Source: Escherichia phage Henu7. From it: a DNA stretch of 49,526 nucleotides. The notes under the pieces were generated by a model that searched no databases, was not told the DNA's origin, and worked only from the letters and a program-made list of their open reading frames with translations. The position numbers and the translations under genes were made by a program. Every line of letters begins with the position of its first letter. Within the stretch, counting starts at the first letter, position 1. The DNA is taken from sequence record NC_054894.1. One strand, 5' to 3'. Below are positions 1-49,518 of the stretch, one piece after another.

Positions 1-610
1 GCTGCACAAAGCACGCAGCCAGTTTGTTAAGGTGAAGAAAGATCGCCAAAACACACACCTAAAAAACAAATACGCAACTCTTGACAGCGTTCTTGATGCA
101 ATCACGCCAGCATTGACAGAAAACAAACTTATGATCATGCAGGACGGCGAGCGTATCGAAAGCACAATGCGCGTTGAAACGACCGTGATCCACATTTCCG
201 GTCAATGGGCTAAATTTTACTTTGATATCCCAATAGTCAAAAACGACCCGCAAGGCGTAGGATCTGCTTTCACATACGGGCGACGTTATGCGCTTGCTGC
301 TGCTTTCGGATTGAGTCAGGCTGACGACGACGCGCAAATTGCCGTTAAGTCTGCGCAGGATTGGAAACGAGATCTCGACAAGTGCGAGACTGTAGACGAC
401 TTGCAAGGCGTGTTGCGTGATGCGTGGAAGTCAAGCGACAAAGCGAACCAGGTGATCATTAAAGAGCACTACGAGAAGCGAAAAGCAGAGATTGAGATAG
501 GAAGCGCTCGCGGTTTTAGCGCCGCAGCTCCAAAGCAAAACCTTGCCGCTAAGGTTGACGAGCCGCAAAAGCAAGCTGTAGAATCACAGCCAATCACCAG
601 CTTTGAATAA
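1..610 (+). CDS. ERF-family single-strand annealing recombinase, 5'-truncated by window edge
   Basis: Frame is open from nt 2; the track ORF starts at GTG 32 with no good RBS. N-terminal pattern [12 protein letters not shown] and GRRYAL motif resemble ERF. In a circular join an in-frame stop lies 11 codons upstream with no ATG, so the gene most likely continues beyond the window. Confidence 0.55.
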
Positions 611-652: not shown

Positions 653-1075
653 ATGCACATTATCACCGGAGAAATTCGAAAAGAGCCTCGAATCAAACAG
701 ACCCAAAACGGCACACTATACGTAGTTGAATTATCCGAGCGATATAAGGATCGAGAAGGTAACGCTCAATACACGAACTACACATTTTTCTTTAACGCTC
801 GCGCCGGATCTGAGGGAATGAAAAACTGGTATGATGAAGCATTCCAGGTTGGCAAGGTGATCTCAGTTTCTTGCGAAGTGCTCAAAGCTGAATTGCGAGA
901 GTACGAGGGTAAAACGTATGTCACCATGCAAGCGGCAGACTTCCCGAAACTGCTGTTTAGCCAGCGCGGAGGCGCAGCGCCACAACAGCAAAGCCAGCCG
1001 CGACAGCAAGCGCAGAGCCAGCCACGGAAGAGCCAAGAGCCTCCGATTGACTTTGACGACGATATCCCATTCTAA
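653..1075 (+). CDS. ssb: single-stranded DNA-binding protein
   Basis: RBS CAGGAGA upstream of the ATG; Gln/Pro-rich linker; acidic C-terminal tail DFDDDIPF typical of SSB. Confidence 0.75.
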   Translation: MHIITGEIRKEPRIKQTQNGTLYVVELSERYKDREGNAQYTNYTFFFNARAGSEGMKNWYDEAFQVGKVISVSCEVLKAELREYEGKTYVTMQAADFPKLLFSQRGGAAPQQQSQPRQQAQSQPRKSQEPPIDFDDDIPF

Positions 1076-1077
1076 AA

Positions 1078-1108
1078 ATAAAGGAGCCTTTCGGCTCCTT
1101 TTTTTATT
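1078..1108. terminator. bidirectional intrinsic terminator between convergent ssb and tail fibre genes
   Basis: Hairpin AAGGAGCC-TTTCG-GGCTCCTT flanked by an A-run and a T-run. Confidence 0.7.
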
Positions 1109-2939
1109 TGGCAATCAATGCCGCAACCATAGCTTTCAACTCCTCAACCTCGCCCTCAAGTTTTGCGATCCTCTCCTTGTTCTCATCATCACGCGCACGC
1201 AATGCCTTAATGGCGGCCAGAGCATCCATCATCAGTGGGTTAAGGTCAAGCGTCACTTTCCCTACGCCCTCAGCAGAGTGAACATATTCCTTGTCGATTT
1301 GTTCGATCTGCTGAGCAATTACGCCACGGCGCTCTGTCTGTTCATCATCATCAAGATAGTAGAATCGCTTAAACTCCATTTGACAGATGTTTTCAAGAGA
1401 ATCAGCAACATCGAGATCGCCTTTGACGTGTTTAAAATTAATATCTGATGTTCCAACAGGCTGCATCTGTGTCCATGGAATGGTGGACGAAGGAGTATTC
1501 ATAGCAGCACTAGCCAGGTTCCGGACGAAAAGATTGCCGGATACTCCTGTAAATATTTGCTGTCGGCGCGCAGGGTCATACCCGCATACGATCCCTGATC
1601 CTGCTTGCGGAGCCCAGGCAGTACCAGAGTCGTCAACACCATAAAATCCTGATTCGGTACTTGCTAAAATATTAGTGCCTGGAGTTCCGAAACCAAAGTA
1701 TCCAACTCCTAAGACATTACCAATATTTGCGCCAACATCTTTGGTGGCGGCACTTCCCAAACCGAGGTTTGTGCGAGCGTCAGCAGCATTCTTTGCACCT
1801 GTACCGCCCTGATCAACGCCGAGAGGAATCCAACCAGACCCAAATCTATACAATCCCCAAGTGCTACCATTTGGAGTAATGAGAGCTTGCGCCCCGTCGG
1901 CTGACAATACCTTAGTTTCAGTTGTCGAATCTTGATTAAGTCTATCAACCTGTAGATTTGCTCTTGCGGTTGCCTTGTTCGCAACGTCTGACAGGTTATT
2001 AGCTTTCTTCAACTGGTTGTCAGGGTTAGCGCTAGCAGCTCTATCCGCCTCCGTTTTTGCCCGATCCGCTTGCTGAGTTGCCGTGGTAGCCGATGCCTCC
2101 GCAGCGGTTTTGCTTGATGCCGCATTAGTCTCTGACGTTTTGGCGTTAGTCTCTGACGTTTTTGCGTTAGTCTCTGACGTTTTGGCAGCAGTTGCAGATC
2201 CAGAAGCGGCGCTTGCAGAGTTAGCCGCCGCGCTTGCTGATGATGCCGCCGCCGTCTTGCTTGCATTTGCGTTTGTCTCGCTTGTTTTCGCAGCGCTGGC
2301 GCTAGCAGCCGCAGCATCCTTATGCTGGCTTGCGGTTGTCGCTGAGCTTGCCGCAGAACTAGCGGAGTTAGCCGCCGCCGTTTTGCTCGATGCCGCATTG
2401 TTCTCGCTGGTTTTTGCTGCACTTGCTGATGATGCCGCTGAGCTTGCTTGCTGGCTTGCGGTTGTTGCTGATGCAGCCGCCGCATTCTTGCTTGCGTTTG
2501 CGTTGCTTTCGCTTTGCGCCGCAGCTTTTGCGCTTGCGCCTGCTGCCAATTCGCTTGCCTTAGTATTTCGCTCAATTTCTTCAAGCTTTTGCCAATCAAA
2601 GCTTTTCAGGAAGTCAACAAACTCCTGATACATTGTTTCCTGACCCTGGTAATAACGCAGAGTTTCGGCAACATCTTGCGCCAGGCCGTCAACAGTGATT
2701 GAGTCATGAAGCAGGATCACGTAGTCTCCACGAGGAACTACCGCGCCGCCAGTAGACGTGGCACGCAGTGAGGTATCATTCACGATCTCGCTAATTGTTG
2801 CGTATGCAACCGGATTGGATGCAAACACGATTGTTGCACCTGGACGAATCAGCGTTAATGCTGTTTTCCACTTTGTTCCGTAACCAGTGATATAGCCGTT
2901 AGCGTCCATTGACGCTTGACCAGTGCGATAAATAGCCAT
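1104..2939 (-). CDS. tail fibre protein with C-terminal intramolecular chaperone (peptidase S74-like) domain
   Basis: Start chosen at ATG 2939 (MAIYRTGQ...) with GGGAG RBS; track start is an upstream GTG. Ala/Ser-rich repeat region (3x KTSETNA). C-terminal region FKHVKGDLDVADSLENICQMEFKRFYYLDDDEQ followed by a coiled coil resembles the endosialidase chaperone domain. Confidence 0.7.
   Translation of the reverse strand: MAIYRTGQASMDANGYITGYGTKWKTALTLIRPGATIVFASNPVAYATISEIVNDTSLRATSTGGAVVPRGDYVILLHDSITVDGLAQDVAETLRYYQGQETMYQEFVDFLKSFDWQKLEEIERNTKASELAAGASAKAAAQSESNANASKNAAAASATTASQQASSAASSASAAKTSENNAASSKTAAANSASSAASSATTASQHKDAAAASASAAKTSETNANASKTAAASSASAAANSASAASGSATAAKTSETNAKTSETNAKTSETNAASSKTAAEASATTATQQADRAKTEADRAASANPDNQLKKANNLSDVANKATARANLQVDRLNQDSTTETKVLSADGAQALITPNGSTWGLYRFGSGWIPLGVDQGGTGAKNAADARTNLGLGSAATKDVGANIGNVLGVGYFGFGTPGTNILASTESGFYGVDDSGTAWAPQAGSGIVCGYDPARRQQIFTGVSGNLFVRNLASAAMNTPSSTIPWTQMQPVGTSDINFKHVKGDLDVADSLENICQMEFKRFYYLDDDEQTERRGVIAQQIEQIDKEYVHSAEGVGKVTLDLNPLMMDALAAIKALRARDDENKERIAKLEGEVEELKAMVAALIAK
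2124..2188. repeat. 3 x 21-bp tandem repeat inside tail fibre gene (encodes KTSETNA repeats)
   Basis: CGTTAGTCTCTGACGTTTTG repeated three times head to tail; embedded in a wider low-complexity Ala/Ser-coding region about 2060..2530. Confidence 0.8.
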
Positions 2940-2956
2940 ATGTAAAATCTCCCAAA

Positions 2957-2973
2957 ATAGCACGTTTTGTTAA
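2957..2973 (+). promoter_or_regulatory. TAGCA-N5-TGTTA palindromic element upstream of tail fibre start
   Basis: ATAGCACGTTTTGTTAA, 18 nt from the tail fibre ATG on the opposite strand; member of the dispersed palindrome family. Confidence 0.4.
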
Positions 2974-3004
2974 TGACAAGTCGGATTATAGCATTGCGCA
3001 AGGC

Positions 3005-3031
3005 ATAAAAAAACCCCGCCGAAGCGGGGCA
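3005..3031 (-). terminator. intrinsic terminator after primase (minus strand)
   Basis: Minus strand reads GCCCCGCTTCGGCGGGG followed by TTTTTTT. Confidence 0.7.
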
Positions 3032-3044
3032 AGAAAGCAATGGT

Positions 3045-4001
3045 TTACCGTGTCGGGAGTAAAGTTTCCGGCTTGTAAAGCTTTCGCTCTATCCCTTGCC
3101 GGAAATTATCGTTAATAGGAAGCATCACGTCAAGTCCTCTCTCCTCAGCGGCAATTATTACATCCTGATCAGTTGACCTGCACACTACGCGCATCTTTCG
3201 ATCTCCTTTGTATCTGTGCGCAACAATCTCAACGTTATAACTTGAGAAGCAAGCCCACACCTCCTGGCCTGTAGAGAGGTGAATGTGTTGAGCGTCAACC
3301 CAATCAACGCACAGATAGATCGTGTTGTCAGTTTTACCAGTCACCGCAACGGAGCCGCGCGTATAGTCCTTTGCATAGAAACTTTTCTCGCCTAGCTCGT
3401 CAATCATGAGGATGTTACACATTTCATCATCTAAGCCATCGCCATGCACAAGGTAGCAAGGGATTGCATGAATAAGCGATTCTCCGCCGTTATCCAGCGA
3501 TTTTACGCCTACAGAGTACATTTCATCATCTGGCGTAGCGATGCCCTCAAAAACGCTTAGAGGCGTTTTTAGCACTCCTTTGGTTCTCTCCATTACTGCA
3601 ACGCAGTTTTCATGTGGAGCCTGGGATCCGAAAGAGTAACCTGATGCGCTGGAGGCTCGCTTGTTCGCCTTAACTATATACTCCTGAGGAACCTTTCCGA
3701 GAAAGCGCCCTAAGATGTTGATGCACTCGCTATATGATTCGCCAGTGAGCTTCATTAGCCAGCCAATACCGCTGTCGTTCCCACAACCGTTGCACACTGC
3801 GCCGCCGTCTCCGTCAGTGCTAAGTTTGTCAGTCCAGCGGAATCTGTCTTTACCTCCGCAGTGGGGGCAAGGTTGGTGTTTCTTGTTGAAAACGTCATTG
3901 CTCAATCCGCAAAGGCTTTGTAGCGCATCGCGCCACATCCCTTTCATGTACGGCAAAACGTCCTCTTTCTGAAACATCATGTTTGGGTGTACTTCTTGCA
4001 T
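3045..4001 (-). CDS. DNA primase (zinc-ribbon plus Toprim-like)
   Basis: Start at ATG 4001 (MQEVHP) with GGAG RBS; CPHCGG...CNGCG zinc-binding motif as in phage primases. Confidence 0.65.
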   Translation of the reverse strand: MQEVHPNMMFQKEDVLPYMKGMWRDALQSLCGLSNDVFNKKHQPCPHCGGKDRFRWTDKLSTDGDGGAVCNGCGNDSGIGWLMKLTGESYSECINILGRFLGKVPQEYIVKANKRASSASGYSFGSQAPHENCVAVMERTKGVLKTPLSVFEGIATPDDEMYSVGVKSLDNGGESLIHAIPCYLVHGDGLDDEMCNILMIDELGEKSFYAKDYTRGSVAVTGKTDNTIYLCVDWVDAQHIHLSTGQEVWACFSSYNVEIVAHRYKGDRKMRVVCRSTDQDVIIAAEERGLDVMLPINDNFRQGIERKLYKPETLLPTR

Positions 4002-4059
4002 GACTCGCTCCAATAAAAAAATCGCGTAGCCGGATGATACCAGATACGCGATCTTTGAT

Positions 4060-4589: not shown

Positions 4590-6590
4590 ATGGCAATTCC
4601 AAACATTGATAAACAGCTTTCCGCCTTGGGTGAGGCGGTAATCAAGGCAATTCAAAATCGCTTTACGTTTGGCGAAATCACCCCATACCCTTACCAGTGC
4701 GTTGCTTACACTGAGATCGCAAAACGCATGAAAAATTACGAGCATCCTTTCTTTGTGAAAGCGTCCGTATCTGCTGGCAAAACCATGATTTTTGCAATGG
4801 TAGCGGCTCAGTGCCAGAGAATGGGGCTTAAAATGATGGTTCTTGCTCGCCAGGGTGAGATCGTAGATCAGGATTCAGAGGAGATCAGTAATTTCGGCGT
4901 GCCTAACTCCGTTTACTGCGCGGCGCTGAAACTCAAGGGAGTACACTTCCCCATCGTTGTTGGTTCCGAGGGAACCGTTTCAAATGGACTCTTTAAGGCG
5001 CTTGGTGACTACGTGCCACACGTTATCGGGATTGACGAATGCCACCAAGTAGATTGGGAGGATTTAGCGGAGGCAATCGAAAACGAGGAGCCGTGGGAGC
5101 AAATGACCACGAAAAAAGGCGAGATTGTCCTGAATGGTGACGGATCCCGCGCTCTAAACAATGACGGCGAACCAATGGAGGGAACCGGACGCACGCAGTA
5201 CACGCTTATCATTCGTGAAATGCAGCGCCGATGCAAAGAGACATACGGGCATGAGTTGCGCATTTTTGGAATGACCGGATCTGAGTTTCGCGGCGTGGTT
5301 CCAATCCTGGTGGAAGATAAGCGCCAGCGCGGATTCTGGCGCGAGCAGGTAACGAACATTGATACCAACTACCTGATCAAGTTCGGCTCCGTTGTGCCTA
5401 CAAACTTTGGCTGCGTAGATGGGTTGGGTTATGACCTTTCAGAGTTCACGGCATCCAGCGAGGACGGCGTAGCAGACTTTGACCAGAAAACCCTCAGGAA
5501 GATGGAGGAGAAGATCCATAAAGATGCAACCATGACGCAAAAAATCATGGCACGCGTTCATGAGATCTGCAAAGACCGCAACGGCGTGCTGGTAACTTGC
5601 GCGGGTGAGCGTCACTGTAAAGAGGCCGCCGCCGCACTTCCGCCAGGGGCAACATACAGGATCATCACTGGCAAGACCGGAGAGAAACAACGTAAGGAAT
5701 GGTTAAAAGAGGCATTCGAGGGAAAAGTAAAATACATTTTCCAGGTTCAAGCACTAACAACTGGCGTAAACGTTCCATATTGGGATACTTCCGTTATCCT
5801 GCGCAAAATAGGATCGCTTACACTGCTGATCCAGCTTTTGGGGCGCGGTATGCGACTGTTAAAGAAATGGCACATTGAGCAAGGATTTAAAAAAGACGAT
5901 CACCTTGTTCTCGACTTTGCCGGATGTATGGACGAGTTGGGGCAACTTTACTTTGATCCTATTCTGGAACAAGCGCAGTATCAGCGCCGTGGCGACAACG
6001 GAAAAGATCCTAAATTCTGCCCTGACTGCGGCACGGAAAACTCATTCTATGCACGCCGTTGCGTTCACGTTGACGAAAACGGAAATCGCTGTGAGTATTT
6101 CTGGAAGTATCGAGAGTGCGAGGATCAGGTAGACCCGCGAACGAAAAAGGTTGTCGTTAAAGGTTGCGGCACTAAAAACGACATATCAGCTAGAATTTGC
6201 CGTTGCTGTGACGTGTCGCTTATTGACCCTAACGAAAAGTTATCCGGCAAGCACTACACTAAAAACGATTGGTGTAATGTAAAATCATTCAGAGTTGACA
6301 TGACCAAAAACCAGCGCGGGATCGTGTTCTGTTATGAGCTTGAGTCTCACGGCGAAACGTTCAAAGCTTATGAGCGATTCTTCCCTGAGTCTGACAACCA
6401 GATCTGCAAGACGCTATGGAGGCAAACGGCGCTCAAGCATATTGCAGATCGCAGGATTGCAGGTGTTACTGCGAGCTATCGCAACGCTCGCAAGATTATG
6501 CAAAACGCGCATCACATTATGGCTCCGAAACGCGTTACGCATCGCAAAAACGCGAAAGGAGAGGACATTATTTATCATCGGGAGTTTTGA
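4590..6590 (+). CDS. SF2 DNA helicase (DExH-box) with C-terminal zinc ribbons
   Basis: Walker A SVSAGKT; DECH box (GIDECHQ); Cys-rich C-terminal clusters CPDCG...C..C. Confidence 0.75.
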   Translation: MAIPNIDKQLSALGEAVIKAIQNRFTFGEITPYPYQCVAYTEIAKRMKNYEHPFFVKASVSAGKTMIFAMVAAQCQRMGLKMMVLARQGEIVDQDSEEISNFGVPNSVYCAALKLKGVHFPIVVGSEGTVSNGLFKALGDYVPHVIGIDECHQVDWEDLAEAIENEEPWEQMTTKKGEIVLNGDGSRALNNDGEPMEGTGRTQYTLIIREMQRRCKETYGHELRIFGMTGSEFRGVVPILVEDKRQRGFWREQVTNIDTNYLIKFGSVVPTNFGCVDGLGYDLSEFTASSEDGVADFDQKTLRKMEEKIHKDATMTQKIMARVHEICKDRNGVLVTCAGERHCKEAAAALPPGATYRIITGKTGEKQRKEWLKEAFEGKVKYIFQVQALTTGVNVPYWDTSVILRKIGSLTLLIQLLGRGMRLLKKWHIEQGFKKDDHLVLDFAGCMDELGQLYFDPILEQAQYQRRGDNGKDPKFCPDCGTENSFYARRCVHVDENGNRCEYFWKYRECEDQVDPRTKKVVVKGCGTKNDISARICRCCDVSLIDPNEKLSGKHYTKNDWCNVKSFRVDMTKNQRGIVFCYELESHGETFKAYERFFPESDNQICKTLWRQTALKHIADRRIAGVTASYRNARKIMQNAHHIMAPKRVTHRKNAKGEDIIYHREF

Positions 6591-26215: not shown

Positions 26216-26241
26216 AGCCCCGCGTTTGCGGGGTTTTTTTG
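26216..26241 (+). terminator. intrinsic terminator ending rightward early operon
   Basis: Hairpin CCCCGCGTTTGCGGGG followed by TTTTTTT. Confidence 0.75.
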
Positions 26242-26245
26242 TGCC

Positions 26246-26254
26246 TGTTATAAT
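26246..26254 (+). promoter_or_regulatory. extended -10-like element TGTTATAAT upstream of terminase genes
   Basis: TGnTATAAT match 27 nt upstream of terS ATG; the downstream GCCTCC...GGAGGC inverted repeat could sequester the RBS. Confidence 0.35.
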
Positions 26255-42554: not shown

Positions 42555-42579
42555 AACCCCGCATTGCGGGGTTTTTTAT
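42555..42579 (+). terminator. intrinsic terminator
   Basis: Hairpin CCCCGCATTGCGGGG followed by TTTTTT. Confidence 0.75.
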
Positions 42580-42603
42580 TGGTTGCTATAATGCAACCTC
42601 AAA

Positions 42604-49147: not shown

Positions 49148-49188
49148 ACAGCACAAATAGCTAAACAAGTGAAAATGGAGGTGTTATA

Positions 49189-49518
49189 ATGCCTCCATCA
49201 AGTCAACAAAGAGAGGATATCAAAATGGAAAACATCACCAATGAAGAAATGATTAGCGCGGCATGCGAAGCTCATATGAGTATTTTTGTACACCGCATCA
49301 CTTTCGCCATGAAGGACTTTGTTAAGCCGCTCAATCCGGCAGACGGCGAAGAAGAAATGAAATACATCCGTGATGTGATGGAGGCGGTTTACAACGTTGT
49401 GGCGACTGCGCTGATGGTCAAAGAGGATCCCGAAGCAATCAAGATGATGAAGGAATCCACCGACAAGCTTATCAATCAGCTTATCGAGATCCATAACGGC
49501 GGCGAAGTTAAGCACTAA
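49189..49518 (+). CDS. hypothetical acidic protein
   Basis: RBS GGAGGTG before ATG 49189; an alternative start at 49225 is possible. Confidence 0.45.
   Translation: MPPSSQQREDIKMENITNEEMISAACEAHMSIFVHRITFAMKDFVKPLNPADGEEEMKYIRDVMEAVYNVVATALMVKEDPEAIKMMKESTDKLINQLIEIHNGGEVKH

Follow-up and report, generated by a model that had tools for sequence, protein, structure and literature searches.

The lateral tail fibre of Escherichia phage Henu7: a heptad-built shaft, a mosaic distal half and a chaperone predicted to cut itself off

The genome of Escherichia phage Henu7 (Drexlerviridae; a T1-like siphovirus) was analysed over its entire length of 49,526 nucleotides (nt), which is called the window below. 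The gene at positions 1104..2939 on the minus strand is, judged by its sequence, the lateral (side) tail fibre gene of this phage. It encodes 611 amino acids (aa) followed by a stop codon, and the assignment is based on its open reading frame (ORF) and translation, on homology and on gene order. It is highly probable that the product is a T1-like lateral fibre consisting of an N-terminal anchor, an Ala/Ser-rich coiled-coil shaft, a beta module, a distal tip and a self-removing S74 chaperone, and that the gene forms a transcription unit of its own. The Henu7 fibre is an ordinary example of a well-known kind and is already annotated as "putative tail fiber", with a precomputed Peptidase_S74 match. 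The analysis confirms the standard modular plan of a side fibre and has little importance beyond correct annotation. It adds two modest points, neither of which would surprise a specialist: shaft lengths that change in heptad steps, with a one-heptad polymorphism, and a cassette of a terminator and an extended -10 motif ahead of three units of virion genes.

Gene identity and modular architecture

The reading frame starts with the ATG at 2939 and ends with the stop codon at 1104..1106. A GTG at 2963, listed upstream by the ORF tool, is only an in-frame extension; MAIYR is the protein start in relatives sharing the N-terminal domain. The encoded protein is 100% identical to "putative tail fiber [Escherichia phage Henu7]" and matches tail-fibre families of the PHROG database, the best at 1e-94. 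Enterobacter phage vB_EclS_AS5 (AS5) and Escherichia phage IsaakIselin, both classified as Drexlerviridae, Tempevirinae, Henuseptimavirus, have the closest genomes in the phage collection (~94% identity across 87-89% of the first 25 kb).

In the Drexlerviridae, the lateral fibre locus sits between the recombination and the primase/helicase genes, and the O-antigen is the likely primary receptor (PMC8594841). The Henu7 gene occupies exactly this position. It is preceded in the window by an ERF-like gene (32..610, plus strand) and an ssb-like gene (653..1075, plus strand), and followed by a primase gene (3045..4013, minus strand) and a helicase gene (4590..6590, plus strand). The annotated lateral tail fibre gene of IsaakIselin is found in the same place, between ssb and primase, and the order of the locus recurs in AS5, IsaakIselin, two metagenomic contigs and phage SH6. 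An earlier reading of the window (the original prediction), made without database searches, had proposed a tail fibre; the PHROG matches, the identity to the annotated protein and the position shared with IsaakIselin bear this out.

The N-terminal domain (residues 1-115; 2595..2939, minus strand), a small beta domain with short helices, would anchor the fibre to the tail. In an AlphaFold2 monomer model built from a 64-sequence alignment, strands are predicted at residues 8-76 with a predicted local distance difference test (pLDDT) score of 75-88. Conservation among the lateral fibres of Drexlerviridae is confined to the far N-terminus, the probable site of virion attachment (PMC8594841), and this family-wide anchor is present in Henu7. 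The best PHROG match, phrog_5481, and further tail-fibre families span residues 1-128 to 1-236, the matched N-terminal part having ~90% amino-acid identity to IsaakIselin and ~91% nucleotide identity to AS5. Residues 1-147 also match the N-termini of the Klebsiella Drexlerviridae depolymerases 7vyv and 7lzj (E = 2e-45), a homology that stops at about residue 170. The beta domain also resembles the N-terminus of side fibres from Enterobacter prophages, with 33-44% identity.

The anchor is followed by an alpha-helical shaft (residues 116-304; 2028..2594, minus strand), delimited by heptad statistics, predicted helix and low-resolution maps of homologues. An Ala/Ser-rich shaft had been predicted; it is confirmed (36% Ala, 20% Ser) and is highly ordered. 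Residues 130-304 are built of 25 uninterrupted heptads of the form xxxAxxS, representing 175 residues in unbroken phase, with Ala at position 4 in 25/25 heptads and Ser at position 7 in 20/25. None of 20,000 shuffled sequences reached 25/25 Ala, the best of them having 20. The spacing between Ala and Ser, 3 then 4, is that of a coiled-coil core, and an uninterrupted series of heptads of this kind is expected for a parallel trimeric coiled coil. The monomer model contains a single helix at residues 116-301 (186 residues; pLDDT ~80-86).

Three chains would assemble into one fibre. Their residues 116-304 would wind into a parallel alpha-helical coiled coil of three strands, the core positions being taken by Ala and Ser. 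This shaft is presumed to be about 26-28 nm long. For the equivalent segment of the homologue DpK2, a low-resolution map from cryo-electron microscopy (cryo-EM) revealed "an extended triple helical bundle" (PMC8552709), and such a bundle is also described for a homologous Klebsiella-phage spike (PMC10581125). A published AlphaFold2 trimer of the Drexlerviridae fibre gp28 likewise combines a coiled coil with an intramolecular chaperone (ICA) domain (PMC12090712).

Shaft length was compared in 85 homologues, measured from the conserved motif RYYQ to the motif NLSD. In 83 of them, the distances fall into two classes modulo 7, with lengths of 105, 140, 147, 175, 203, 210 and 224 residues or of 108, 115, 213 and 220 residues, which within a class differ by multiples of seven. 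By our reading, the two classes would correspond to two alternative linkers 4 aa apart. A distance of 224 aa was observed in 51 of the 85 homologues and one of 220 aa in 11, with different internal heptad sequences. This hints at a preferred shaft length among homologues whose sequences are not independent. Tandem ETNAK(T/A/S)S heptads recur in many members of the family. A protein search with the shaft only (residues 207-329) gave just two weak matches and was uninformative for ranking shaft relatives, presumably due to the compositional correction of HMMER.

In residues 305-392 (1764..2027, minus strand), a linker (NPDNQLKKANNLSDV...ARANL) is followed by a single beta module of ~63 aa, which has GGTGAKNAADARTNL at its end. 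The module is bounded by ARxNL motifs and contains GGTGA; it was recognized by the module count in relatives and by a match of its motif region to the tail fibre 7z47_D. The same tip is preceded by no module in P0004, by one in Henu7 and P0002, and by three in P0003. The number of beta modules alters the length of the fibre far more than the heptad repeat does.

Linker and module would lead to a small distal tip (residues 393-497; 1449..1763, minus strand), the presumed receptor-binding domain, which is defined by its identity to Enterobacter prophage fibres and modelled with low confidence in the monomer (pLDDT 33-60). Residues 373-602 (1134..1823), including the GGTGA motif, the tip and the chaperone, are 75-86% identical to side fibres of 366-375 aa from lambda-like prophages of the Enterobacter cloacae complex, encoded downstream of gpJ (loci L008/L009, 8001-9128). 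This suggests that modules have passed between temperate phages of Enterobacter and a virulent coliphage. None of the phage records covers at least 80% of the Henu7 fibre protein, which is a mosaic: its anchor and shaft are of the Henuseptimavirus type, and the end of the shaft is common to Vilniusvirus. Judging from T5-like and other Drexlerviridae fibres, the first receptor of the tip is probably a surface glycan, a non-essential one that is bound reversibly. The tip in common with Enterobacter prophages might hint that E. coli and Enterobacter hosts share a glycan receptor.

The C-terminal 114 aa (residues 498-611; 1107..1448, minus strand) are predicted to be an S74 intramolecular chaperone that cuts itself off, a reading supported in silico by Pfam, a conserved dyad and the fold. 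A search with the Peptidase_S74 profile, the check proposed with the original prediction, gave a match to PF13884 over residues 498-553 (E = 3.9e-9) that scores 37.1 bits, above the curated cut-off of 22. The domain opens with S498-D-I-N-F-K503. The predicted catalytic residues Ser498 (1446..1448, minus strand) and Lys503 (1431..1433, minus strand), assigned from dyad spacing and conservation, are five positions apart, a spacing also found in the catalytic dyads of endoNF (S911/K916) and MyRF (S587/K592) (PMC8326128). Of 64 aligned homologues, all have D499 and at least 90% have S498 and K503, and the rest of the domain is mosaic.

The model of residues 500-611 (pLDDT 76-87) has the ICA fold with a final helix of 45 residues (566-610). 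With the whole model, the best Foldseek matches were the MyRF ICA 7dc3 (E ~1e-4, target TM-score 0.64, root-mean-square deviation (rmsd) 2.2 Å, 115 columns) and the K1F chaperone 3gw6 (probability 0.99). A family-profile search retrieved 7dc3 (1.9e-13), LtfA of phage DT57C (8hqz_d; 8e-36) and the GA-1 chaperone 3gud (0.0039). A single-sequence search of the PDB with the C-terminal 132 aa reached only DT57C LtfA, so that profile and fold searches were needed to find MyRF, GA-1 and K1F. The domain lies at the extreme C-terminus, and the preceding residues 397-497 are beta-rich and of low confidence in the monomer model. A Pfam match to TrkA_C (E = 0.14, below the cut-off) was set aside. The chaperone resemblance proposed for the last ~130 residues holds up, with a domain of 114 aa instead.

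The chaperone would trimerize via its terminal helix and template the folding of the distal beta structure. It would then remove itself by autoproteolysis in front of Ser498, with Ser498 and Lys503 as the predicted catalytic pair. The mature chain would have 497 aa (residues 1-497; ~50.2 kDa), and a fragment of ~12.9 kDa would be released from a protein of 63.1 kDa before cleavage.

Within this domain lies the only stretch in which Henu7 departs strongly from its 92%-identical relative P0002: residues 511-540 (1320..1409) are just 47% identical, between flanks of 80-100%, which indicates a recombination patch inside the chaperone. Residues 498-525 of Henu7 are the same as in the Enterobacter prophage version of the start of the domain.

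The 21-bp repeat

Three tandem 21-bp units are located in the part of the gene encoding the shaft (2121..2183, minus strand) and specify KTSETNA three times (residues 253-273). They were identified by Tandem Repeats Finder (TRF) and from the unit sequences. TRF reports 2125..2186 with a period of 21, 3.0 copies, 95% matches and a score of 117. The in-frame units at 2183..2163, 2162..2142 and 2141..2121 read AAAACGTCAGAGACTAACGCA, ...AACGCC and ...AATGCG. Adjacent units share 17-20 bp of exact identity. There are three DNA differences among them, all synonymous, and the threefold peptide is perfect; the predicted repeat is real, although its DNA copies are not the perfect ones claimed. A fourth, non-tandem KTSETNA at residues 218-224 uses different codons (e.g., AGC versus TCA for Ser). 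The tandem copies can thus be ascribed to duplication, the peptide itself being a recurrent shaft motif. Each unit encodes exactly one heptad, which in heptad phase reads ETNAKTS, and changes the length of the helix by ~1.04 nm.

Two independent metagenomic relatives, P0002 (92% identical to the Henu7 fibre over its full length) and P0012, have the Henu7-type triplet at the same position. The triplets of the three carry different point substitutions, which indicates that the triplication pre-dates their divergence and has been stable since. Compared with these three copies, the Vilniusvirus phages KLB19, HazelMika and NBD2 have two units, the difference being a clean 21-bp gap between closely similar flanks; KLB19 is 94.6% identical to Henu7 over gene nt 778-963. 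AS5-type shafts contain KTSETNA-KSSETNA, and IsaakIselin a single KSSETNA. Metagenome DNA scans for further copy-number variants, using the tandem junction and a single 21-bp unit, yielded no matches, and a scan of viral contigs gave three loci only, none of them from a close relative.

On these comparisons, the repeat can expand on an evolutionary time scale, and nothing points to rapid programmed slippage. The gain or loss of a unit would keep both the reading frame and the register of the coiled coil, changing the length of the shaft by ~1 nm, and such events have taken place in evolution (two versus three copies). That the repeats can vary fibre length, as had been predicted, is upheld by the one-unit difference from Vilniusvirus and by the 7-residue steps among homologues, as variation on an evolutionary scale and not as frequent slippage.

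In the AS5 record (OR753409.1), 77 bp of the shaft region are duplicated in tandem (fibre gene nt 441-594; locus 2941-3094). As a result of the frameshift, the fibre gene is annotated there as three separate ORFs; P0011 is an intact equivalent. The duplication may reflect a mistake in the assembly or else, in a region rich in repeats, a real mutation that inactivates the fibre.

Transcription signals of the fibre gene

Sequence signals support the view that the fibre gene is a separate transcription unit, insulated by terminators on both sides. Upstream, a terminator scan identified an intrinsic terminator after the primase gene, which ends at 3045 (3006..3030, minus strand; GCCCCGC-TTCG-GCGGGG, then seven T). 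Its hairpin occupies 3030..3013 and precedes the seven-T run, and the element is kept in four relatives. A direct pattern search located a candidate extended -10 promoter, TGCTATAAT (2985..2993, minus strand), 13 nt past the T run and ~45 nt upstream of the ATG, which is also kept in relatives. A ribosome-binding site, GGGAGA (2948..2953, minus strand), is found 8 nt upstream of the ATG. At the other end, a bidirectional intrinsic terminator (1080..1101, both strands) detected by the scan 3 nt after the fibre stop codon is common to the fibre gene and the convergent ssb-like gene.

The motif TGNTATAAT has four sites in the window, all of them facing the start of a downstream gene; the expected number is 1.1, and 100 shuffles never gave as many as four. 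The genome has three terminators of the CCCGC-loop-GCGGGG-T type, and each has an extended -10 motif, TGnTATAAT, 5-13 nt behind it. These cassettes of hairpin and motif are placed ahead of the fibre gene (3028..2985, minus strand), of the packaging/structural operon (26219..26254, plus strand) and of the gpJ-like central fibre gene (42558..42592, plus strand). A fourth motif, TGTTATAAT (49182..49190, plus strand), stands ahead of a small ORF near the end of the window and has no hairpin. Phages of other genera (grams, DanielBernoulli and SH6) also have a terminator and then a promoter-like sequence upstream of their fibre gene. From this arrangement, we infer that the fibre gene is probably driven by its extended -10 promoter, which is of the same type as those ahead of the packaging/structural and central fibre genes.

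The separate regulation of the fibre had been predicted from a palindrome at 2957..2973 abutting the start codon. The regulation is supported, and its basis is a different one: the upstream terminator, the extended -10 promoter and the downstream bidirectional terminator. The bases at 2957..2973 read ATAGCACGTTTTGTTAA and are not self-complementary, and an inverted-repeat search of 2930..3050 found nothing there. Nor does this segment abut the start codon, since the ribosome-binding site lies between them. What comes nearest is CAAAA/TTTTG at 2953..2969, two AT-rich arms of 5 bp; the window has a pair of this kind about every 117 bp, and in four relatives the TTTT run of the TTTTG arm is one T shorter. 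The RNA of the 5' leader folds no better than shuffled sequences (z = 0.40). The palindrome was rejected as a chance feature on the inverted-repeat search, the leader folding, the chance frequency and the conservation in relatives.

Alternative readings and related systems

Some points weigh against the explanation proposed here. The monomer model is of low confidence at residues 397-451 and in parts of 79-109 and 303-316, and an Ala/Ser core is unusual for a coiled coil. In the homologues 7lzj and 7vyv, the helical segment was left unmodelled at high resolution (PMC8552709, PMC10581125). The promoter has a poor -35 region, and a two-hexamer sigma-70 scan found none upstream of the fibre gene. 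As for the repeat, three lineages with exactly three copies and point differences argue against high-frequency slippage.

The small core residues, the Ala/Ser-dominated composition and the unmodelled segment of the homologues would also suit a flexible, disordered low-complexity linker lacking any rigid coiled coil. A linker of that kind would not need indels that keep the heptad register, which is what 83/85 homologues have. Together with the phase unbroken across 175 residues, the confidently predicted helix and the triple-helical bundle in the low-resolution map of DpK2, this makes it very unlikely. At the other end of the protein, the mature fibre might keep the S74-like domain uncleaved, as a knob with a structural role or one in contact with the receptor. 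This would be compatible with the cleavage of the Henu7 fibre being a prediction only. It is distinctly unlikely in view of the +5 Ser/Lys pair and the adjacent Asp, which are retained by nearly all aligned homologues (at least 90%) despite the mosaic remainder, and of a fold and profile that match auto-cleaving domains. Anchor homology to the Klebsiella depolymerases 7vyv and 7lzj could even indicate an enzymatic tailspike (a capsule or O-antigen depolymerase) in place of a binding fibre. However, the homology to these enzymes ends at ~residue 170, no Pfam enzyme or beta-helix domain was found in the Henu7 fibre, and less than 200 aa separate shaft and chaperone, compared with ~370 residues for Depo32's beta-helix domain. 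An enzymatic function is extremely improbable.

Two further readings concern the repeat. The 21-bp tract might be a contingency locus, in which high-frequency slippage produces mixed fibre lengths in each lysate and a programmed variation in length. The exact identity shared by adjacent units, the difference of two versus three copies between lineages and the preservation of frame and heptad register are in line with this. A contingency locus is expected to have a long perfect run of short repeats, and its copy number to differ among near-identical genomes or inside populations. The Henu7 tract has only three 21-bp units with three mismatches, all three Henu7-type genomes have three copies, and all three Vilniusvirus phages have two; the difference is seen only between genera. 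The different substitutions in Henu7 and its two metagenomic relatives point to long-term stability, and tandem ETNAK(T/A/S)S heptads are ordinary shaft sequence across the family. Slippage of this sort is highly improbable. The fibre could also be regarded as an evolvable length ruler, in which changes by single heptads at tandem ETNAKTS units (21 bp, ~1 nm) and by whole ~63-aa modules arise at a measurable rate in phage populations and are selected so that the reach of the tip suits the thickness of the O-antigen or capsule of the host. The Henu7 triplet would then be a recent one-unit expansion of a two-unit ancestor. This combined reading is considered unlikely.

The preferred explanation, a modular lateral fibre with a chaperone that would remove itself, finds its closest counterparts in the lateral fibres of other Drexlerviridae (IsaakIselin Bas10_0031; gp28 of Cronobacter phages CRES7/CRES9). 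As in Henu7, their locus lies between ssb/recombination and primase genes on the strand opposite to ssb, and they share the conserved N-terminal anchor. The published architecture of gp28, a coiled coil with beta structure and an ICA/S74 domain, is that of the Henu7 fibre (PMC12090712). In contrast, the distal half of Henu7 is a different allele, and the heptad content of the shaft and the number of beta modules differ. The side fibres of Enterobacter cloacae complex prophages ("tail fiber domain-containing protein", e.g., P0092) lack the 25-heptad shaft and the beta module of Henu7 and, unlike the Henu7 gene, sit in a temperate lambdoid tail operon.

Among the L-shaped fibres of the T5 family (T5 pb1; DT57C LtfA, 8hqz chain d), similarity to LtfA is found in two regions: the Ala/Ser heptads (Henu7 residues 128-321; LtfA 53-244) and the C-terminal chaperone (Henu7 495-596; LtfA 956-1074), including the GTS-x4-K site. 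The Henu7 fibre is expected to share with them the role of a reversible, non-essential binder of the O-antigen. The T5-family proteins are, however, much longer (1076-1396 aa) and have a different collar attachment and different tips, the DT57C fibre being branched and made of two proteins.

The Peptidase_S74 chaperones of the K1F endosialidase (3gw6), of the GA-1 neck appendage protein (3gud) and of MyRF (ICA domain, 7dc3) resemble that of Henu7 in fold or profile, in Ser-x4-Lys and in the trimerizing end helix, whereas their upstream domains are unrelated to the Henu7 fibre. The long beta "tentacle" of endoNF appears to be absent in Henu7, as the alignment to 3gw6 is poor overall (rmsd ~18 Å) and that to MyRF is good. 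The Klebsiella Webervirus depolymerases DpK2 (7lzj) and Depo32 (7vyv) are homologous to Henu7 in the anchor and in the start of the helical bundle. Unlike Henu7, they have a large beta-helix enzyme domain and a carbohydrate-binding module, and their published domain descriptions, the chains themselves not having been scanned, contain no S74 chaperone.

For phage engineering, the predicted cleavage site before S498 and the ARxNL/GGTGA junctions of natural swaps may serve as boundaries, and heptad units might be added or removed without breaking the helical register.

Two long ORFs in other frames are present inside the shaft-coding DNA (2009..2599, minus strand, and 2083..2628, plus strand; 196 and 181 aa). 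They were judged not to be genes and are most likely by-products of the periodic GCN-rich codons.

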